DNA of 64,000 nt from Candidatus Nealsonbacteria bacterium. GTDB lineage: Bacteria; Patescibacteriota; Minisyncoccia; Minisyncoccales; MHMH01. The translations under genes and the position numbers were made by a program. Where the stretch lies: assembly GCA_016181965.1 (NCBI GenBank), contig JACOYH010000007.1:7110-71109 (forward strand), read 5' to 3'. The notes under the pieces were generated by a model that did no database searches, was not told the DNA's origin, and was given only the letters and a program-made list of their open reading frames with translations. The first letter of the stretch is position 1; every line of letters begins with the position of its first letter. Of the stretch, positions 1-27,796 are shown piece after piece.

Positions 1-1513
1 GCAATAAATTTTCTTCTTTCCAAAAAAACACCAAGAAATACTGATAGTCATGAGGGATAACCCATTTTTCCTTGTCTATGTACGCCAGCTTCAGAAGATT
101 ATACGATGGTTGGGGATATTCACTGCTTTCTGTCTTCAGTAGGGCCTTATCGAGAGCCCTGACGGAGTCCTCATCAAGCTCTTCTTGCAGTAAAATCGAC
201 TCTTTGGTGGGGATGGGGTTGATATAATTCCAATTACTGACAATTCTGGAGCCCTGCGGAATGTTTTCTTCAACCCATTCTTTGGCCAAAATACGCGTGT
301 CTTTTTGGTTTAGCAAATTAACATATTGAAATGAGGCCGCGGCGGGATAAGCGAAAACCAAAATCAGTAAAATTATTCTTAAAACCGGGGGCAACTTGGC
401 CGCTAATTGATAAACAGCGTAACTAGCCGGAAGAATCAGCCAAGGAATAATAACCAAAATATAGTGCAGGTGAGGATTGCCGCCAATGTATCCTCCGTGC
501 AATATGAAATAAGTAATGAGCAACCAGAAAACAGGCCAAGTCAAGAAAACAAGAGCCAACCCCTTTGACTTAAAATAAAAAAACGCTGATCCAAATAAAG
601 AAAAAATAAGAACGAGCGGCTCATAGAATAATAAGGCCTTCATATAGGCGAAAGAAACGAACAAAAATTGCGAAAAGCTTCGATTAGCCGCTAACGCTCC
701 CTCTAACCGCCCAAGACCAGTCCAACCCACGAAAAGTTGGGGAAAAATCATAGTGAAAATACCGGCCAAAAGGACAAAAACGACAATTGTTAACCACAAT
801 TTCCTGTCTTTCAATTTATTCAAAATGGAATTTTTACCGGTTGCAAAATGGGCCATCAAAAAAATAAACAGAGTAACCGGCAAGATATAGTTGGTTCCAA
901 AACCCAAACCCCCAACTATCCCCATCCATAAATAGTATTTTATTTTGGGCGATTTCCAAATACATAAAGACAAGAACATCACCAATAAGACGATAAATAA
1001 GCTGGGACCCCATAAGCGGGTGAAATGAGAAAATTGAATATGCAGGAAACTAGTGGTTAAAAACGCAGCCGATATCAACCCTACCCAATTATTAAAGGCC
1101 TTTTTACCGATTAAAAAAAGCAGAAAAACGGAAGCCGCGCCAATCAAGGCATTAATAGCCCGAGCAATCAGCCAAATCGGGCCGGGGTCAATGACAAAAT
1201 AATTGGCGATTTCGGCAAGGTTGGCAAAATGCCCTGTAAAATATTGAATTAGAACAAAAGGAGTTATAAAAAAAAGGTAAATATATGACATCAGGGGAGC
1301 GTAATATAAAATCTTAAATTCCTCGGCATGAAGAGCTGGAATCAGGGTTTTCAGTTCACCCATCTTCAGGGCCCCGTATACTAAAGTCCGCTCATCGTCG
1401 ATTAAAAAATAGGGCAAGCCGTAGTTGAGTCCCCAAAATCTCAAAAATAATGCCAATCCAATAATGCAAATAAGCGGCCAGTTTTTCTTGATTAGCTTAA
1501 TTCGCGCCATCAT
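1..1513 (-). CDS. GT-C fold membrane glycosyltransferase (ArnT/PMT-like, GT39/GT83 type); 3' end lies beyond the window
   Basis: Absent from the ORF track because it runs off the left edge. Manual translation from the ATG at 1513 gives MMARIKLIKKNWPLICIIGLALFLRFWGLNYGLPYFLIDDERTLVYGALKMGELKTLIPALHAEEFKILYYAPLMSYIYLFFIT..., then continuous multi-TM sequence. The lack of any listed minus-strand ORF here fits an open frame reaching position 1. Confidence 0.6.
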   Translation of the reverse strand, partial: MMARIKLIKKNWPLICIIGLALFLRFWGLNYGLPYFLIDDERTLVYGALKMGELKTLIPALHAEEFKILYYAPLMSYIYLFFITPFVLIQYFTGHFANLAEIANYFVIDPGPIWLIARAINALIGAASVFLLFLIGKKAFNNWVGLISAAFLTTSFLHIQFSHFTRLWGPSLFIVLLVMFLSLCIWKSPKIKYYLWMGIVGGLGFGTNYILPVTLFIFLMAHFATGKNSILNKLKDRKLWLTIVVFVLLAGIFTMIFPQLFVGWTGLGRLEGALAANRSFSQFLFVSFAYMKALLFYEPLVLIFSLFGSAFFYFKSKGLALVFLTWPVFWLLITYFILHGGYIGGNPHLHYILVIIPWLILPASYAVYQLAAKLPPVLRIILLILVFAYPAAASFQYVNLLNQKDTRILAKEWVEENIPQGSRIVSNWNYINPIPTKESILLQEELDEDSVRALDKALLKTESSEYPQPSYNLLKLAYIDKEKWVIPHDYQYFLVFFWKEENLL

Positions 1514-18364: not shown

Positions 18365-19873
18365 CTATTTTCCTAAGAGCTCGTTTAGTTTATTTCTTGT
18401 AGTTTGAGCAACAACACCGGTCCCCTTGGTTATATCGTAAGGAACTAAGATATCTTGAGCGTATTTTTCTTGAAATTTAACGACGGCGGCCTTAGTTAAG
18501 TCGCCGAAATAAGCGGTTTCATTGCCCGAAGAACCAACACCAGAAACAGCAACTTGAGTGGCGGAGTCGGAATTCAGAATAATCTGCAGACATTTTACAT
18601 CTTCGCCGACATACCCCGCTCTAATATTTCTGTCAAAGCTACCGATATTACACCCCTCGATTTCCCCTTCCCCCACTTCTTTTAATTGAGCAAGCTGGCT
18701 CTGTAGATTTTGCGCTTGAATCAAAATCTCGGCAATCTTGGCTTTTAATTCTTCGGCTGTCATTTCGGAAATCGGCTTTTCTTCGGTTAGCTCCACTGGT
18801 GTCTCTGCTACAATTGGCTCCTCAACTGCCGGAGTCGGAGGAGTGGGGGTAATCGGAATTATTGGCGCTGTCGGAGTTGTTAAAGTAATGGTGGCAGAAA
18901 TAACCCCGGAATTTACTCCGTCAGAACTGACAAACTTAGCATAAATAGTTTTTTTGCCATCTCCTGCTGGCAGGGTCCAGGTTTTAGTTGTGGCATAAGT
19001 TTCCAGCGGGACAAGGAAAAGATTATCGTTAGAAATGCTCATTAGATTCGCATCGCCCGCCTTCAGCTTTAGAGTAACCTCACGGCTTTCGGTAATTGCC
19101 GCTCCTTCATTAATAATCAAAGAGTCAGTGTAGGTGGTGGGCACTGTATAACTTCTGCCACTGCGCGAGGCGGCTGTGGTTGCGGACATTACGCTACCGT
19201 AGCTGTCGCTCTGTTGGGTGAGTCCTCCATCAGACGTAGAAGACCAGGCCCTGAAGTAATAAGTATGATTTTGAGGTAAATTATAAAGGGTTACTTCCGT
19301 TCCGTTATCCCAATATGCCTGATTGCCGGCTGTAATTGAAGTGGGATATGTCGTGCCATCATTATATCTAATCATGGTCTTTTCGTTGCCGGTACCGGCA
19401 GTCCAGGTTATTTTTATTCTATCTGCAAAAGATGACACGCTAAAAGTTGAGGTAGCCGGCTCAACGGGTTTAGTTAAAAAAGTCAGCTCGTCGCCGTATT
19501 TGACGTAACCTCGAAAGTAATAAAGAGTTCCGGGAGCCAAAGGCGTAGTGCCGGAAAGCGTAGTAGTAGTATGCGAAAAAGCCGTACCTCCGGCAGAGAC
19601 GGGTCCGACGAAGGCCTGCGCATCTGTTGAAGAACCTAAATCATAATTTCCCCTAGTGGCGCTTGCGGTTCCCAAATTAAACCCTCTTCTGTCGTATGTC
19701 TCTGAATTTACCGTGGTGGTTAGTGTGCCATTTAGAACAGCTGTGGTCGTGGAAATTGCCGTGGCGGCATCGGTGGTAACAGAGATGGTGGCTGAAGAAA
19801 TTTTTGGATAGCCGAGAAAACCCAATAAAAATACTAAAAATAGCGCGGGGAATATAAAATTTTTGTTTCTCAT
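18365..19873 (-). CDS. secreted surface protein: FN3/Ig-like repeats, P/T linker, coiled coil, C-terminal peptidoglycan-binding (PG_binding_1-like) domain
   Basis: Signal peptide. The C-terminus YVGEDVKCLQIILNSDSATQVAVSGVGSSGNETAYFGDLTKAAVVKFQEKYAQDIL is ~65% identical to the N-terminal module of the 1395-aa protein. Confidence 0.75.
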   Translation of the reverse strand: MRNKNFIFPALFLVFLLGFLGYPKISSATISVTTDAATAISTTTAVLNGTLTTTVNSETYDRRGFNLGTASATRGNYDLGSSTDAQAFVGPVSAGGTAFSHTTTTLSGTTPLAPGTLYYFRGYVKYGDELTFLTKPVEPATSTFSVSSFADRIKITWTAGTGNEKTMIRYNDGTTYPTSITAGNQAYWDNGTEVTLYNLPQNHTYYFRAWSSTSDGGLTQQSDSYGSVMSATTAASRSGRSYTVPTTYTDSLIINEGAAITESREVTLKLKAGDANLMSISNDNLFLVPLETYATTKTWTLPAGDGKKTIYAKFVSSDGVNSGVISATITLTTPTAPIIPITPTPPTPAVEEPIVAETPVELTEEKPISEMTAEELKAKIAEILIQAQNLQSQLAQLKEVGEGEIEGCNIGSFDRNIRAGYVGEDVKCLQIILNSDSATQVAVSGVGSSGNETAYFGDLTKAAVVKFQEKYAQDILVPYDITKGTGVVAQTTRNKLNELLGK

Positions 19874-21116: not shown

Positions 21117-24100
21117 TTACTTAGACAGAGTCAGAGTTTGCGTCGGCAAGCCGGAGACCTTGTAGTCCACGCTCCAGTCGCTGGTACCCATTGTGTGGGT
21201 TCCGCCAGCTCCGGATCTATCAGACCAAACGAAGGTCGCGGCAGTTGAAGTGACTGGCATCACGCTGTTTCCATGAGCCCATCCGCCGCCAACAGCCGTT
21301 TCAAAGGAACCGGTTGTGGTTGCAGTGGATCTCTTTTCAATCTTGAAAGACAGCGAGTCGCCGGCCGCACCGCCGTAAGCAATGTCTCCTCTCAACTCGT
21401 AGGTCTTGGTTGCGCCTGCGGAAATCGTCTGCTCGTTCTTAGCAACGAACCCGACTCTGGCGCCGCCACCTGTAAAGTTGTGGACATAGTAACCAGTGTC
21501 AGTCGTGGTAGGCAGAACTTCTTCGTTTGTCGCAACATCGTAGACCTTCATCGTGCTGGTGGCAACCAATGACTTGGCCACGTTAGCAACGTCAGTCGTT
21601 GAGGTACCAATAAAGATGGCAGCAGTGGTTGTTGAACCGCCGGCGCCAACCGTGTAGGCCTCGGAACTGACTGTAACGTTACCTGACACGTCAAAGATTA
21701 CTTTCTTCCAGCCAATGTCTCCGCCCGAATCAGCCGTAACAGTCCATCTGTAGAGCACCTTTGTGCCAGCGCCAAATGAAGTGCTGGGCAAAGAGGCGGC
21801 TGCCACAGTGGGCTTTGTCTTATGGAGAATCTGAACATTACCGCAAATCCTCGCTGTGTCAGCACTAATCGTAGAACCGGAACTTACTCCGATCGCGTCG
21901 GTGCTGCTAGCCAGACATAGCTGTGGAGCGTTACCGGTCGTGGCTCCAGCTTGATCAGCTGATTTCACGCCGTAAATGTCGGCTTTAACAAGCAAGGTTT
22001 TAGTGGTATCTCGCGGAATTCTCCAGTAAGAGCCAACCGGGAAGTTGAATGTGGTTGACGAGTCAGTCAATCCGGAGCTTACCAAAACTTGGTCCACTCC
22101 TAATTTAGTGCTGCCGTCCCACAAACTGACATTGGCGAAATCAGCGTCAACTGCCTGTGTCCTGTCAATACTGATCGCCTTGACATCAATATCTTCCCTG
22201 GCAGCAGTGAGAGTCACAGCCAAGAAGGTTACATCCTGCTTAACAGCGCCGGTGTTGCCAACCGCGACTATCCCTATCTCGGGATTGGTCGGAGAAGGCG
22301 CGGCCTGTACTGTCAGGGTTCCTCTGGCCTGAACGGTCACATAGTTGATAGCTGCCGGGCTTGAACTGGTACTGAAGTTCACGCCGCCAAGAGCCGAACT
22401 GTAGCTCAAGGTGGTAGTTGGCGTTGAGTTGGAACTCAAACCGGTAAAGACGATGTGCTTTGTCTGCTGTGAAGCATCAGAAGAACTGGAAATACCGAAA
22501 GCGATACGGCTGCCAGCTACTGCGGTTGAGGAAATGTCGGCCTTAACGGTAATCGTTTTTTGACTACCCTTAGTGACATCAAACCCTTGCGAGTTTAAGA
22601 AGTCAGAGGCCGAGAAGGTCACGGTTGTTGCCGTAGACGAGTCCCAGTCCCTAAATGTAGTCAATCTGGTAGTTCCTTCGTAAAGGGCGATGTTTTCCAA
22701 GTTGTCTTGGTCCGCGTCGGCAGGAGCGCCAGCGATATCACTGCTGGAGGCGCCCGAGGCGCTCAACTTGATGTAAGTCACCCTGACATCTTCAGATGAA
22801 CCGGCGGTAAACACCAATCCAACAATTGAAATTCCGGTCGCTCCGACAATCGCGTTCTGGTCGCCAGGAATAGCGGCTGCGGAAACGGTCAGAACTCCCT
22901 CGCCAATAGTCATTGTTTTACCAGTAACCGATGAAACGGTTTCGGTCAGCGTGGCCGAAGAAGCAACACCGGTGGTCACAATGTCAGCATTATTGGTAAG
23001 TTGCATATTACCGGTAGCCAAGGCGGTTGAAGTCGGAACATCTGCTAAAACCTTCAAAACCACGGTCCCTGAAGCTGGCACTGTCAGATTAATACTGAAA
23101 GCGGCTTCAGTTGTCGGCGCGGTAACGGTTGAGCCGAGCTGGGTTCCGTCAGAAACTTTCAACAGTTTGACATTGGTGTAATCGCCCGACGCCGCGTTTG
23201 ATCCCGCTGACTTCAGGTCAATAGTAACTGACGAGACGGTCAGGTCTTCTCCGGAATCAGCCGTCAGATTGAATCTTAAGAACTCCTGGTCGGTTGCGCC
23301 CTTAATAATGTTTTGCGCGGCAGGAGTGTTGGCATTCAAGGTAACGGTCAATGCGCCGCTGGCGCCAATGGTGTGAAGATTGGCATTGCCGCTGGTCAAG
23401 GTAGTGTCGCTCTGCGTAATGTCATACTTTGACTCTAATCCGTCAACCCAGACGTCGGTGTTAGCGGCGATATCCAAGTCAAGCGTTTTAGTAGCTGTGG
23501 CTCCGCTGGGAATATCGGCTTTAACCTGAATTGTTTTGTTGCCCGACTTTGGCACATCAAACAATCCGGGGCTGTCGTATCCCACAGAGTTTGAACCGAA
23601 TGTTGCGTAATTACCGATTAGAGATACGGCGCTGCCGATTTGCGTTGAGCCGTCCCAAAGAGTGACATTGGAAATATCAGTGGCCGCGCCATTGCCATTG
23701 TTAAGCTTTAGCCGCAACTTGACAATTCTTACGCCCTCCCGCGAACCCGCGGAGAACTTGAAAGCCGAGAATAATCGGCTGGTAGTTCCCTTGGTGTAGG
23801 TTTGAGCGGCCGGGTTGTAAGCCGAATCAATGTTAACGGTTAAAGTGCCTTGTCCAATGGTCATGGTTTGGCTGGTCTGCTTACTGAAAGCGGCTGTGTC
23901 TGATGCGGCTACTTCTATTGAGCCGCCGGAGTTAGCTCCGTAAGACGCAACATCGCTCACTTCGGTGATCTCAAAAAGCACAGTTCTGGCTGTGGAAATT
24001 CCCGAAGCAATGTCAGCGTAACCGTAAATGGTCTTTGTGGCGCTGGCCAAGATTTGGAAGGGATTGCCCGACAAATCAATAGTGGCCTTGCCCTGGGAAT

Positions 24101-25304
24101 TAAGCGCAGCAACAGTACTGCCGATCTGCTCGCCAGCGTATTTCAACTTGATATTGGAAATATCGTTGGTGGATGCAGAGCCGGTTTGAGTCACTACGAT
24201 TTTAGTCACATATACGGCCTCACTTGAACTGGCTGTAAAGTCCCAGGAAGCGATTTCCTGCTCGGTTGCTCCGGACAAAATAGTTGCGTTAGCTGGAGTC
24301 ACGTTAGCAGAAACGAATAATTCGCCGACTGAAATTCCAGCGATAGTCAAGGCCTTGCCGTATGCTGGGAATGTTCCGCTGACTGTGGCAGAAGTTGTGA
24401 CATCAGCGGCAGAATCAATACCCAACGTAATGCTGTCGCCGACAGTGGCAGTGCCCTTGGCGGCAACGCTAACTTTCACGGTTAGGTATTTGGTTGTGTT
24501 GGCAGGAATTTGCCAGGACAAGCCTGTAAATGTTGCCTTGTGCGTGTTGGTGTTTAAAGCCTGTGACGAGCCCAACTGGGTCGTGCCGTCATAGAGCTTA
24601 ACAGCAGAAACATCAGCGTCGGCTGACACGCTGTCTCGCTTTATTTTAATCTGGGTAACAGTATAGCCGGTAGTGCCGCCTTCGAATTTGAATTTAGCGG
24701 CGTCAGCATCAACTGCGGCCAAAGCTATTTGTCTTGCTGCCGGTGTGTCGGAAGCCAAACTTATAGCGGCTGTGCCTGATGGCGCTGGGGCAGGAGGCGG
24801 TGTCGATGGCACGCCAGATGACAACAATGCGTTCAGCTTAGCTCTGGTAGTTGAGCCAACGTAGCCGGTGCCTTTGGTCAATCCCCAAGAAGCCAAAATA
24901 TCGCTGGCGTATTTCTCTTGGAATTTGACAACCGCCGCTTTGGTCAAAGGACCAAAGTAGGTTGTTTCCATTCCCTTAGAACCAACGCCGGATGCGGCCA
25001 ATTGGGTGGCAGAATCGGAGTTTAAGACAATCTGAAGATATTTCACTTCATTACCAGAAGCGCCCAATTCAATGGCTGTCATAAAGGTGAAATCAGCCGG
25101 AACGCCTGTGATGGCGCCGCCGGTTGTTCCGCCCTCAACTGTGGACAGCTGCGATTGTAATGCGGCTATTTGAGCCAAAAGGGTGTCAATCTGGGCTTGA
25201 AGTTCGGCAGCTGTAATGGCTCCGGCAACTCCGGGGCCCATCAGCCATACAGCGGTGGTAATGGTCGTAACGGTCGCTACAATCTTTTTAGTTAATTTAT
25301 TCAT
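21117..25304 (-). CDS. giant (1395 aa) T/S/A/G-rich cell-surface protein: signal/anchor, coiled coil, PG-binding domain, Pro linker, six or more ~130-aa Ig-like repeats (S-layer or fibril candidate)
   Basis: [97 protein letters not shown]. Recurrent ...DIS.V.L.DG.TQ.GS... modules. Visibly higher G+C than the flanks. Confidence 0.8.
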   Translation of the reverse strand: [1395 protein letters not shown]

Positions 25305-25454
25305 TTTTTGTTTGTTTTTTGCGTTAAATTATTATTTCTTCAGAGTCATTATCGACCTTCCCACTGCCTTTTGGATATGAAGAATTCTTCTTTTAACTAA
25401 TGTGCCATTAGGCGACATTCAAAAAGAGATGGGATATGACCTCCAAATTCAAAA

Positions 25455-26204
25455 TTATTGGTTATTATGCGCCTGCCAAAGCTTGTATAGGGCTTCTTGG
25501 TAGAGCCCTGCGTCGTAATCCTGCATGGCCTGCTTTAGCAGTTCTTGTTTTTCTTCAGTTAATGTTCTGCTTGATAAATCCTCTATCAAATATCCGGCTG
25601 TCTGTTTCTCTAAAACGCTCAAAGCATTTTTCAAATCCTGCGTATCGCCAACCTCGGCGCCCAAGACCCTTTCTACTCTTTCTTTGTTTTCTGCTAATTT
25701 CAGGGTTTCTTCAACTAATTCTCGCAGCACAATAGCGTCCGAGCTGGTTACGTTGGCATCCATATCATTGAGATTCTGGGTGGCCTGCACCAAACTTGCC
25801 TGAAATTCTTTGATGGCCGGCTCTAATTTTCCAACCTGATTGCTTTCGGCTATTTGGCTTAATTCTGCCAGGCGCTTATTGGCTAATTGTAGCTGGACTT
25901 TTGGCTTTTCCATTTCCGAAGAAAATCCCACCTGCACGGTTTCAGTCGCTTTCTTGATTGAAAAGAAAAAGTCGCCGGGCATGGTGCCTTGCGCAAAGCC
26001 GAAAAGCCCGATAACAAGCACGACGCTCAAAATCGGAGCAAAGGCCAGCTTGTATCTGAAAACAGAAAATACCGAGGCCATTTCTTCCGCTTCCCTTGTC
26101 TGCTCTTGGGCCAGAATTCTGCTCTTAGTCAAAACAACCCAGTCCTTTCTGGGTTTGATTTCCTTGAGACATTTTAGATTGTGGATAAGTTCATTATCGG
26201 TCAT
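25455..26204 (-). CDS. membrane-anchored anti-sigma-like protein with a DUF5667-type helical domain
   Basis: ATG at 26204 (MTDNELIHNLKCLKEIKP...), one TM (LAFAPILSVVLVIGLFGF), then PGDFFFSIKKATETVQVGFS..KVQLQLANKRLAEL. The ORF-track start at 26333 is TTG and reads through a palindrome. Confidence 0.65.
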   Translation of the reverse strand: MTDNELIHNLKCLKEIKPRKDWVVLTKSRILAQEQTREAEEMASVFSVFRYKLAFAPILSVVLVIGLFGFAQGTMPGDFFFSIKKATETVQVGFSSEMEKPKVQLQLANKRLAELSQIAESNQVGKLEPAIKEFQASLVQATQNLNDMDANVTSSDAIVLRELVEETLKLAENKERVERVLGAEVGDTQDLKNALSVLEKQTAGYLIEDLSSRTLTEEKQELLKQAMQDYDAGLYQEALYKLWQAHNNQ

Positions 26205-26276
26205 ATCGGATATCGATTGTCTATTATAGTTATGACGGAAAAGAAGATATTTTGTTACACCAATATCCAGCCATCG

Positions 26277-26330
26277 TTTGTGATAGGCCGGGCTTATCAC
26301 AAGCTTGTGATAAGCCCGGCCTATCACAAA
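26277..26330. repeat. 54-bp perfect palindrome centred on ACAAGCTTGT, between the sigma and anti-sigma genes
   Basis: tttgtgataggccgggcttatcacaag|cttgtgataagcccggcctatcacaaa. Confidence 0.9.
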
Positions 26331-26349
26331 CAAACCGCTTATTACAAAC

Positions 26350-26850
26350 TTACTGTAATTCCGCTCTTAAGGCCTTCAGAGCTCTGTGGATAACCACCCT
26401 AACCGCCTCTTCCGACTTATTCAAAATCTTGGCAATTTCGGGAACCGTAAACTCATCCAAATAATACCAAACAATGATCTCCCGATAGTTGTCATTAACC
26501 TTAGCCAAAGCCGCCTTAATCCTCCCCACGTCAGAGGTCAGCATGGCTATTTCCTCCAAACTTTTTTCCCTGCTCTGCGCCTGCGGCACACTCTCCATTG
26601 AGACAAATTGGGCCTGCGCCTTTTGGCGGTATTGGTCGGTGACCAGATTACGGGCTATTTGATATAAAAATGCCTGTGGATTATCTATCTTGGACGCTTG
26701 TTTTTGGAAGGCCTCCCAACCCCTCGTAAATGTCTCGGAAGTAAGGTCTTCGGCGATTTCTTGAGAGTTCACCTTAAGGTAAATAAAGCGATAGATTTTA
26801 TCTACGCTTTTGTCGTATATTTTACCAAATTCTTTTTCTAATTGTGACAT
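26350..26850 (-). CDS. RNA polymerase sigma-70 family factor, ECF subfamily
   Basis: 166 aa with region 2 (IYRFIYLKV.SQEIAEDLTSETFTRGWEAF) and region 4 HTH (EFTVPEIAKILNKSEEAVRVVIHRALKALR). Confidence 0.85.
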   Translation of the reverse strand: MSQLEKEFGKIYDKSVDKIYRFIYLKVNSQEIAEDLTSETFTRGWEAFQKQASKIDNPQAFLYQIARNLVTDQYRQKAQAQFVSMESVPQAQSREKSLEEIAMLTSDVGRIKAALAKVNDNYREIIVWYYLDEFTVPEIAKILNKSEEAVRVVIHRALKALRAELQ

Positions 26851-26936
26851 TGACTGATTTATTGACTAAAAAATGTGACATTATGCTTAACAATTGTGCC
26901 ATTTTACATGCTTATGGCACAATTAATGTCACAATT
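26840..26936. promoter_or_regulatory. Cluster of five AAT(T)GTG(A/C)CAT(T) motifs arranged as nested inverted repeats
   Basis: 26840 aattgtgacatt (overlaps the sigma ATG), 26872 aatgtgacatt, 26892 aattgtgccatt, 26914 atggcacaatt (rc), 26925 aatgtcacaatt (rc). Further copies at 25399 and 27437. Confidence 0.6.
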
Positions 26937-27423
26937 TAATGCTGTAGTTGGCGCCCCGGCCGTTCCCTGTCCTGACAATACTACCACCCTTATACAGATC
27001 TTCCAAGTCCCTAATAAGGGTTCTTCGGCTCAACTGCGGGAAAATCTGTATAAGTTCGCCCACCCTGACTTTGTCTTTATTCTTAATAATTTCTACTATC
27101 TGTTCTTTACGAGTTCCGTTGCCCTTCTCTGCGTCTACGGAATCCGTAATCCGATCGTATTCTCTGCGTAAAACGATGAAATTGCGGCTATCGGCCAAGT
27201 TCTTTTTCTGCGCTCGGCCCAAAAAACTGTCCAGTTCTTTAATGCTTTCGCCCAAGGCCTCGGCAGTGAGGTATGGATTGGGCCAAATTAAATCAGCTAA
27301 TACCTTATTAGCTGATGTCCTAATTTGCTGTCGCAATAATTCATCTTCGGGCAATAATTCAGTGACCTTGTAGACAGCAAGAGTCAATTTAAGATAATGT
27401 TCTTTGCTATCATTTGACCACAT
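26929..27423 (-). CDS. putative transcriptional regulator: N-terminal four-helix-bundle (IVS-protein-like) domain plus C-terminal DeoR-type winged HTH
   Basis: HYLKLTLAVYKVTELLPEDELLRQQIRTSANKVLADLI; RKEQIVEIIKNKDKVRVGELIQIFPQLSRRTLIRDLEDLYKGGSIVRTGNGRGANY. Confidence 0.55.
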   Translation of the reverse strand: MWSNDSKEHYLKLTLAVYKVTELLPEDELLRQQIRTSANKVLADLIWPNPYLTAEALGESIKELDSFLGRAQKKNLADSRNFIVLRREYDRITDSVDAEKGNGTRKEQIVEIIKNKDKVRVGELIQIFPQLSRRTLIRDLEDLYKGGSIVRTGNGRGANYSIKL

Positions 27424-27429
27424 TTCCCT

Positions 27430-27458
27430 ATTTTATAATTGTGACATTGGAAAGTCAA
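27430..27458 (-). promoter_or_regulatory. sigma-70-type promoter of the wHTH gene (TTGACT-N17-TAAAAT), 6 nt from the ATG
   Basis: Minus strand: ttgact (27458-27453), 17-nt spacer containing aatgtcacaatt, taaaat (27435-27430), agggaa, ATG (27423). Confidence 0.6.
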
Positions 27459-27478: not shown

Positions 27479-27508
27479 TTGACACAGCATCTTGAAGATA
27501 GGTATAAT
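27479..27508 (+). promoter_or_regulatory. consensus sigma-70 promoter (TTGACA-N18-TATAAT), 6 nt from the ATG at 27515
   Basis: ttgaca 27479-27484, tataat 27503-27508, aaaact, ATG. Confidence 0.65.
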
Positions 27509-27514
27509 AAAACT

Positions 27515-27796
27515 ATGCAGGGTGACTTTTCTGAACTATCGCGGCATTTTGACGACAAATTTGAAGAACTCAAGCGGCGTCTTTTTGATTTAGAAAACAA
27601 GTTTTTGGAGATGAGCCGGAAAATAGACGATTTGCAAAGAAATAAAACAGATAAAACAGATCTCAATAATATTACAAACACTCTTAATGACCACGTCAGA
27701 AAGGCGGAAGTTGCATTCCAGCAAATAAATGAAATGACCCGCAAGGTAGATAATTGCGAAAGGCAGTTGAATGAACTCTCCGGCAGAATTAAATAA
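27515..27796 (+). CDS. small coiled-coil protein
   Basis: 93 aa from the ATG at 27515 (MQGDFSELSRHFDDKFEELKRRLFDLENKFLEMSRKIDDLQ...). The ORF-track start at 27404 is TTG and overlaps the divergent gene. Confidence 0.55.
   Translation: MQGDFSELSRHFDDKFEELKRRLFDLENKFLEMSRKIDDLQRNKTDKTDLNNITNTLNDHVRKAEVAFQQINEMTRKVDNCERQLNELSGRIK

Follow-up and report, generated by a model that had tools for sequence, protein, structure and literature searches.

Conserved near-palindromic boxes beside a winged-helix regulator gene and an ECF sigma gene in Patescibacteria are candidate operators of the regulator

The question raised by this locus is what is controlled by a short sequence, AAT(T)GTG(A/C)CATT, that recurs within 2.1 kb of a 64,000-nucleotide stretch of DNA from Candidatus Nealsonbacteria bacterium (assembly GCA_016181965.1, contig JACOYH010000007.1, positions 7,110 to 71,109 of the forward strand; the whole stretch is referred to as the window). 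The copies, which we call boxes, lie around the gene for a 164-aa protein with a winged helix-turn-helix (wHTH) domain, termed here the regulator, and the gene for a sigma factor of the extracytoplasmic function (ECF) type. These two genes open a module that continues with a gene for a DUF5667 protein, the presumed anti-sigma factor, and a giant surface-protein gene, and all four genes are on the minus strand of the window. Based on comparison with related loci we propose that the boxes are probably operators of the adjacent regulator, through which it would limit expression of its own gene and of the sigma gene.

A search of the whole window with this motif, with 100 shuffles as control, shows seven copies in the cluster, six of them exact and one near-exact. 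The 12-nt form AATTGTGMCATT is present four times, at 26840, 26892 and 27437 in plus orientation and at 26925 in minus orientation, with AATTGTGACATT at 26840, 26925 (minus strand) and 27437 and AATTGTGCCATT at 26892. The 11-nt form AATGTGMCATT is present twice, at 25399 (AATGTGCCATT) and at 26872 (AATGTGACATT), while the seventh copy, at 26913-26924, has two mismatches and, together with 26892-26902, makes up a perfect inverted repeat of 11 nt. The number of exact copies expected by chance is 0.06-0.07, and none of the 100 shuffles equalled the observed counts. An earlier sequence-only reading of this DNA had placed seven sites in these 2.1 kb, with one overlapping the sigma ATG, one inside the 17-nt spacer of the wHTH gene promoter and one 95 nt from the ATG of the 1395-aa gene, and all seven are found at those positions. 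It had also held that a motif common throughout the genome would speak against operators; no further copy of the motif exists outside the cluster in the 64-kb window, where there is a single 9-mer match, within a coding sequence at 19724, and where two-mismatch matches outside the cluster number 11 versus the ~8 expected over the whole window. The box consensus is AATGTC[A/G]CAAT(T), a near-palindrome of the form AATGT-N-ACA(A)TT. The palindrome is perfect in the 11-mer AATGTGACATT (AATGT-N-ACATT), as would be expected of the site of a dimeric winged-helix protein, and the 12-mer has one additional T in one arm.

The first line of evidence for operators comes from the promoter of the regulator gene (26929-27423, minus strand). 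This promoter, at 27430-27458 on the minus strand, is sigma70-like, with TTGACT (27458-27453) and TAAAAT (27435-27430) separated by 17 nt. Only 6 nt lie between the -10 element and the ATG at 27423, and the regulator mRNA is therefore predicted to be leaderless. Box P, which reads AATGTCACAATT on the minus strand, occupies 27437-27448 in the spacer between these two elements and is the proposed autoregulatory operator. To place this arrangement in context we assembled 100 loci with regulator homologues (28-76% identity) from genome and metagenome collections and compared the ~70 that are non-identical, which include 42 loci in the clade of the window (clade A) and 27 loci in clade B. A TTGACx-16..18-TAnnnT promoter is found upstream of the regulator gene in 37 of the 42 clade-A loci, and in 28 of these 37 promoters the spacer contains a box starting 4-6 nt past the -35 element. 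In addition, exactly 6 nt separate the -10 element from the start codon in 27 clade-A loci. The typical clade-A promoter reads TTGACA-N3-5-ATGTC[G/A]CAATT-A-TAnnAT-6 nt-ATG. A site in the core promoter of the regulator's own gene, as looked for in an autoregulatory operator, is thus present both in the window and in most of its clade.

The second line of evidence comes from the junction of the regulator and sigma genes, where the window has five boxes. Box R1 (26925-26936, plus strand) is in reverse orientation relative to the operon and holds the regulator stop codon (26931-26929). It is followed by Box R2 (26913-26924, plus strand), a GCC variant reading TATGGCACAATT that is also reversed, and then by the forward boxes F1 (AATGGCACAATT on the minus strand, 26892-26903), F2 (the palindromic 11-mer at 26872-26882, minus strand, which is succeeded by T6 on that strand) and F3 (26840-26851, minus strand). 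Box F3 includes the sigma ATG (26850-26848), such that ATG TCA CAA TT is read as MSQL. The centres of these five boxes are at 26846, 26877, 26898, 26918 and 26930, and the resulting steps of 31, 21, 20 and 12 bp indicate that the junction boxes are helically phased. The sequence of the Box F2 region, AAATGTCACATTTTTTAGTC, is kept in loci L001, L004, L021 and L022.

Boxes at this junction are also a general feature of the compared loci, nearly all of which have one to five further boxes there, in both orientations. The usual layout is a reverse box over the last codons or the stop codon of the regulator gene, which is conserved in clade A, and then forward boxes, the last of which often gives the sigma ATG. 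Indeed the sigma gene opens with ATGTC in 28 of the 42 clade-A loci. This match at the sigma start is more than a coding constraint, since ATGTCCAATT, a variant that is 1 nt shorter, is also present as non-coding copies. Spacings between adjacent same-orientation boxes cluster at 11-12, 19-21, 30-32 and 41 bp, which are near multiples of 10.5 bp, and therefore display the helical phasing that is a property of DNA-protein recognition. Finally, regulatory zones totalling 12.7 kb contain the core TGTCRCAAT 57 times, versus 11 times in 315 kb of flanks, which is a 128-fold excess. Phylogenetic footprinting of the locus, which the sequence-only reading had proposed as a check, thus finds boxes at fixed promoter and junction positions across loci, and this conserved placement goes together with the locus-specificity seen in the enrichment and in the lack of other copies in 64 kb.

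Several additional box-like sequences were seen in other loci. AATGTC[G/A]CATTT-like sites are present on the reverse strand 156 nt into the sigma gene in L002 (at 4211), L010 (4719) and L029 (1172), and 260 nt into it in L007 (4300), L033 (2848) and L053 (1237), with none inside the sigma coding sequence of the window; these sites may be additional operators or may arise by coincidence from the coding sequence. Matches located further downstream in other loci, inside the coding sequence of the giant gene (for example in a region coding for AQIATLQ), were set aside as coding coincidences. A further reading, in which a promoter close to the sigma gene uses the boxes as its extended -10 or -35 elements, was rejected because the spacings are inconsistent and a good promoter, TTGAAA-17-TAATAT, is seen only in L021. 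A weak internal promoter near the sigma start is possible.

The third line of evidence is that, at the level of clades, a switch in the box coincides with one in the DNA-binding domain of the regulator. In clade A the recognition helix reads x(R/K)RT(L/I/V)(L/I/M)RD, the wing reads GNGRG and the box is ATGTC[A/G]C[A/G]AT. In clade B the helix reads xKRTLRRD(F/L), the wing reads GENNN or GDGKW and the box is ATGTCCTA/TAGGACAT. Within clade A the first residue of the helix is S where base 7 of the box is A (11 loci) and N where this base is G (21 loci), with four exceptions among loci that have S or N. This finer correlation is only suggestive since it is confounded by phylogeny.

Regarding the regulator itself, the protein has a predicted N-terminal four-helix bundle that is followed by a C-terminal DeoR-type winged helix-turn-helix. 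Residues 105-157 match Pfam HTH_DeoR (PF08220) with an E value of 1e-6 and 28.8 bits versus a cutoff of 21. No DeoRC effector-binding domain was detected in a Pfam search, and the NCBIfam GlpR and AgaR models score only 20-22 bits against cutoffs of 260-300. Membership in the DeoR family was therefore rejected, because the HTH is C-terminal and a DeoRC domain was not detected. An AlphaFold2 model (confidence score pLDDT of 84) predicts bundle helices at residues 4-22, 28-46, 54-73 and 79-101 ahead of the winged helix. The best match of the bundle in the Protein Data Bank (PDB) is 2gsc (Xcc0516), which we take to be a 23S-IVP/Avd-type protein, with a TM score of 0.68-0.74 normalised to the target, a root-mean-square deviation of ~2.5-3 Å and a Foldseek E value of only 8e-3. 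The predicted N-terminal domain superposes on 2gsc and also shows a weak sequence match to 23S_rRNA_IVP (PF05635), but it scores below the Pfam threshold for this family (18 versus 33.8 bits, E 0.0034, covering residues 11-43 only) and is fused to a wHTH domain. The modelled C-terminal domain resembles winged helices of the DsrD, AspA, HlyU, ArsR and MarR types. At E<=1e-10, a profile search with the regulator recovers no fewer than 1320 clusters (50% identity); almost all of the 150 best matches span essentially the full length. A protein identical to the regulator is annotated in Candidatus Nealsonbacteria.

The site at 25399 differs from the other six. It lies in the 150-nt spacer between the anti-sigma and giant genes, and this spacer aligns across loci as a multi-helix structure, a conserved structured RNA of ~105 nt at 25339-25444 on the minus strand. 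The helices (four with compensatory changes) are a closing helix of GTCGTTATC with GATAACGAC, a CCC/GGG helix, UUUUGAAU/AUAUCCAAAA and a GC-rich apical hairpin, and the element also has a conserved unpaired GGTCGA. In the seed alignment 92% of cells are paired, versus 40-52% with slid partners, and nine pairs show compensatory changes versus one to four for slid partners; when 25 loci are aligned with a covariance model, the number of pairs with compensatory changes is twelve. This covariance model has a single match in the window, at 25339-25444 (72 bits, E 1.5e-16), and finds one RNA copy per locus, at the same position, in all 25 matching loci. The apical hairpin of the window is formed by 25399-25409 (AATGTGCCATT), two bases and 25412-25419 (GCGACATT), and has the minus-strand sequence TGT-C-GCC-UAAU-GGC-ACA. 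The apical stem of relatives is GGGC/GCCC, GGGU/ACCC and the like, and the AATGT...ACATT flanks are gone where the AATGTCGCAATT operators are kept. Because this box-like sequence is lost where operators persist and because its stem covaries, we place 25399 outside of the operator set and conclude that it is probably not an operator.

The RNA element may instead be a 5' leader, a stabiliser or a riboswitch-like element of the surface-protein mRNA. It is like the structured 5' leaders of highly expressed surface-layer genes and riboswitch-like RNAs in being a multi-helix element directly upstream of a very large surface-protein gene, but unlike known leaders it has no match in Rfam 15; a search of that collection with the RNA element and the box array gave no family and only far-subthreshold matches of miRNA hairpins to palindromes. 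No convincing sigma70 or ECF promoter was found directly 5' of the giant gene. When the 60 nt upstream of the RNA (25445-25504) were inspected along with those of 20 other loci, only a loosely conserved, TAAAAT-like element of the -10 type, resembling TTTAAAAT(TT), was seen 6-8 nt before the first RNA helix, with no consistent -35 element in this set. This element is a hint that the first RNA helix may mark the start of the surface-protein transcript, which would then have a 5'-terminal stem-loop. A second hairpin, AACGTTCGTTTTCGTTCAnCGTTAAACGAAAA, is found ~20-55 nt upstream of the giant-gene ATG in L006, L009, L035, L037, L038, L047, L051 and L057; it is limited to one subclade and is absent from the window.

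A further sequence that is separate from the boxes is found upstream of the anti-sigma gene. ECF promoters are characterized by an AAC motif in the -35 element and by CGT or CGTC in the -10 element (PMC5758882). The window has one such promoter, TGTAACAAAATATCTTCTTTTCCGTC (TGTAAC-N16-CGTC) at 26234-26259 on the minus strand, which is the sole match in 64 kb. In 45 of 52 non-identical loci, from both clades, TGTAAY-N16-CGTY with an invariant 16-nt spacer lies in the gap from the end of the sigma gene to the anti-sigma ATG. Three more loci, for a total of 48 of 52, have the motif with its -35 element overlapping the last sigma codons. Elsewhere there are only four matches in the 572 kb that were scanned. 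This conserved promoter at another place in the module means that the promoter specificity of the sigma factor is explained by a sequence other than the boxes, and its location between the sigma and anti-sigma genes implies that the sigma factor would drive the anti-sigma gene, and probably the surface-protein gene, rather than itself. In many loci the anti-sigma ATG is only ~12 nt past the ECF -10 element.

There are several observations that weigh against the assignment of the boxes as operators of the regulator. The assignment rests on co-location and on coarse covariation, and a mutual-information scan revealed that many other columns, including columns of the sigma factor, correlate with the box comparably. 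A spacer box is absent from eight clade-A promoters (L004, L005, L021, L024, L049, L050, L055 and L070), and in clade B the box is located upstream of the -35 element. Box variants also differ by a 1-nt insertion or deletion (11-mer versus 12-mer; ATGTCCAATT versus ATGTCGCAATT), which is unusual for a rigid dimeric site. Lastly, both arms of the inner inverted pair in the junction array share one A-to-C (GCC) variant, and as RNA the array folds into a hairpin with U6 after it. These last two features are the reason why an RNA-level role is also possible, perhaps in addition to DNA operators. In one version the hairpin and U6 would terminate or attenuate transcription ahead of the sigma gene; in another a helix would sequester the sigma AUG until ribosomes finishing the regulator open reading frame open it, thereby coupling sigma translation to regulator translation. 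In the minimum free energy fold 26936-26925 is paired with 26851-26840 and 26924-26914 with 26902-26892 (-24.6 kcal/mol, z -2.7). Such a device would also suit the succession of F2 and T6 that is retained in the four loci sharing the F2 region, the perfect inverted repeats that change on both arms in L023, L024, L025 and L056, and the conserved layout of a reverse box at the stop codon with a forward box at the AUG. However, arms that are built from a single protein site are automatically complementary, and phasing of ~10.5 bp is a feature of DNA and not of RNA. Furthermore Box P, whose placement is among the two most consistent, is located between -35 and -10 elements and is presumably not transcribed. 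The window and its closest relatives have the AU-rich two-tier hairpin with U6, but it is absent from loci with 2-7-nt gaps, where only a helix of ~6 bp (-3 to -6 kcal/mol) can form and where GCGACAT, the stop-codon box, has a better complement than the AUG box ATGTCCAATT. A terminator scan also did not call the hairpin. These points weigh against an RNA-level device as the main explanation, and in either version we regard it as an unlikely, though conceivable, second layer.

Two other explanations appear weaker still. The boxes could be operators for a different, unlinked protein, with the adjacent wHTH protein acting in some other manner such as by binding the sigma factor or RNA. What speaks for this is that the identity of the box-binding protein is drawn from location and from a covariation confounded by phylogeny, as well as the fact that the N-terminal Avd/23S-IVP-like fold has no known DNA-related role. 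Yet the boxes occur only beside the regulator gene in the 64-kb window and are strongly concentrated there relative to the 315 kb of flanks; they change with the recognition helix and wing; and a box in the core promoter of the regulator's own gene is a classic mark of autoregulation. Apart from the regulator, the module's one DNA-binding protein is the sigma factor, and overall we view an unlinked protein as very improbable. As to the sigma factor, the boxes could be its own promoter elements, since they flank the sigma gene, their GTC core recalls an ECF -10 element and most ECF sigma factors autoregulate (PMC5758882). Against this, the boxes occur in both orientations, inside a sigma70 spacer and over start and stop codons, and do so without an AAC...CGT pair at a spacing of 16-17 nt. 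Meanwhile 48 of 52 loci have a proper TGTAAY-N16-CGTY promoter at another place in the module (26259-26234 in the window), which contradicts an ECF promoter role for the boxes and makes this explanation hardly credible.

With the boxes read as operators of the regulator, we infer a circuit with two transcription units. The regulator bound to Box P, between the -35 and -10 elements, would block RNA polymerase and so establish negative autoregulation. The five phased boxes that extend from the regulator stop codon to the sigma start codon would be bound cooperatively, perhaps with looping to Box P ~500-600 bp away, and in this state the array would curb transcription of the ECF sigma gene by read-through or by internal initiation. 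Unit 1 would thus run from the housekeeping-type, box-controlled leaderless promoter through the regulator gene to the sigma gene. Once made and freed from the anti-sigma factor, the sigma factor would use the separate ECF promoter to transcribe unit 2, which comprises the anti-sigma gene, probably the structured RNA leader and the giant surface-protein gene; no terminator is evident between the anti-sigma and surface-protein genes. The regulator would consequently affect the anti-sigma factor and the surface protein only indirectly, through the sigma factor, because the anti-sigma gene has an ECF promoter of its own and because site 25399 belongs to an RNA structure and not to the operators.

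This circuit retains part of what the sequence-only reading had proposed. Its view of the boxes as operators of the adjacent wHTH protein holds up for six of the seven sites, as judged from promoter position, junction boxes, enrichment, phasing and the change between clades, and fails for 25399. The link that it drew between the regulator's own expression and the sigma gene is likewise supported by the box in the regulator promoter and by the junction boxes across loci. Joint control of the sigma/anti-sigma pair is not upheld given the anti-sigma gene's own TGTAAC-N16-CGTC promoter, nor is a direct link to the surface-protein gene, as 25399 is the apical hairpin of a covarying RNA whose box-like sequence is lost in relatives. 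A more far-reaching version of the circuit can also be imagined. Structural relatives of the Avd/23S-IVP-like bundle crystallise as pentamers, and an oligomeric regulator, by offering multiple winged helices together, could wrap the five boxes, loop to Box P and cover the sigma start, which, together with the reversed ECF wiring and the RNA leader, would constitute a Patescibacteria-wide master circuit for surface proteins that is possibly responsive to host contact. We consider this version quite unlikely; if true, it would amount to a nucleoprotein switch enclosing the regulator gene.

The module in which these boxes are embedded is itself conserved. Its order is wHTH regulator, ECF sigma factor, DUF5667 anti-sigma factor and giant surface protein, and it was found in Nealsonbacteria, Giovannonibacteria, Komeilibacteria and other metagenome-assembled genomes of the Candidate Phyla Radiation (CPR), with the box arrangement recurring in dozens of these uncultured, ultra-small bacteria. 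Wherever the sequence suffices, an ECF sigma homologue follows the regulator gene on the same strand, with a gap of 2-140 nt in nearly all loci. In the window the sigma gene (26350-26850, minus strand) codes for 166 aa with Sigma70_r2 and r4 domains (TIGR02937, 89 bits), and its best model is of the BldN type. The anti-sigma gene (25455-26204, minus strand) codes for 249 aa from the ATG at 26204 and matches Pfam DUF5667 with an E value of 2.8e-12; anti-sigma homologues of ~250 aa also come after the sigma gene in other loci. The giant surface-protein gene (21117-25304, minus strand), which codes for 1395 aa, is the last gene of the module, and the N-terminus of this protein is conserved 3' of the anti-sigma gene in 41 loci.

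Two other features of the window are located next to or within the module. A perfect palindrome at 26276-26331, which has 28+28 nt and no loop (GTTTGTGATAGGCCGGGCTTATCACAAG and its complement), lies after the sigma stop codon and ahead of the ECF promoter. Each of its arms is itself near-palindromic, and its core TTGTGATA is one base off the box core TTGTGACA. This palindrome is specific to the genome of the window, and since in other loci that position is empty or holds an ordinary hairpin it may be a terminator or insulator, or else an insertion. On the other side of the regulator gene there is a divergent gene for a 93-aa coiled-coil protein (27515-27796), which has a perfect-consensus promoter, TTGACA-18-TATAAT, at 27479-27508 on the plus strand. 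As the sequence-only reading had noted, this promoter begins 30 nt past the box at 27437-27448. The coiled-coil gene is not a conserved neighbour in the compared loci and for this reason is probably outside of the module.

The proposed circuit shares features with several known systems. As with E. coli DeoR (O1/O2/OE), GalR, LacI and lambda CI, there is an operator in a core promoter with further copies hundreds of bp away; the sites are phased, in a way that fits cooperative binding or looping, and the HTH here is of the DeoR type (PF08220). It differs from DeoR in that the HTH is C-terminal rather than N-terminal and in that a four-helix bundle replaces the DeoRC sugar-phosphate sensor. It also differs from DeoR-like arrays in that its downstream operators reach over a stop codon and the start codon of the following gene and in that the target is an ECF sigma gene and not a catabolic operon. 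A second resemblance is to BldN-RsbN of Streptomyces (chaplins, rodlins) and to SigW, SigX and SigM of B. subtilis, in that the gene for an ECF sigma factor adjoins that for a membrane anti-sigma factor, an AAC/CGTC-type promoter is used and a cell-surface protein is the probable target downstream (PMC6101532; PMC5758882). Unlike in BldN-type modules, the ECF promoter here precedes the anti-sigma gene, which would constitute negative feedback, and not the sigma gene. The sigma gene here is also accompanied by one for a dedicated repressor, which is expressed from a housekeeping-type leaderless promoter and apparently gates the sigma factor. Our literature searches on DUF5667, on ECF sigma factors of the CPR and on S-layer regulation found nothing that describes this module or DUF5667. 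Operator arrays are thus a known type, while the conserved CPR circuit and its candidate structured RNA are undescribed in the literature that was searched.

To our knowledge next to nothing is known of how transcription is regulated in Patescibacteria, which have small genomes with few regulators. The locus described here offers a testable CPR circuit that comes with an operator sequence, a candidate repressor family, leaderless promoters, an ECF promoter, an RNA element and a likely surface-protein output. Giant surface proteins are prime candidates for host attachment, and knowing the switch that sits ahead of one would open its regulation to experiment by electrophoretic mobility shift assays, reporters and metatranscriptomics.

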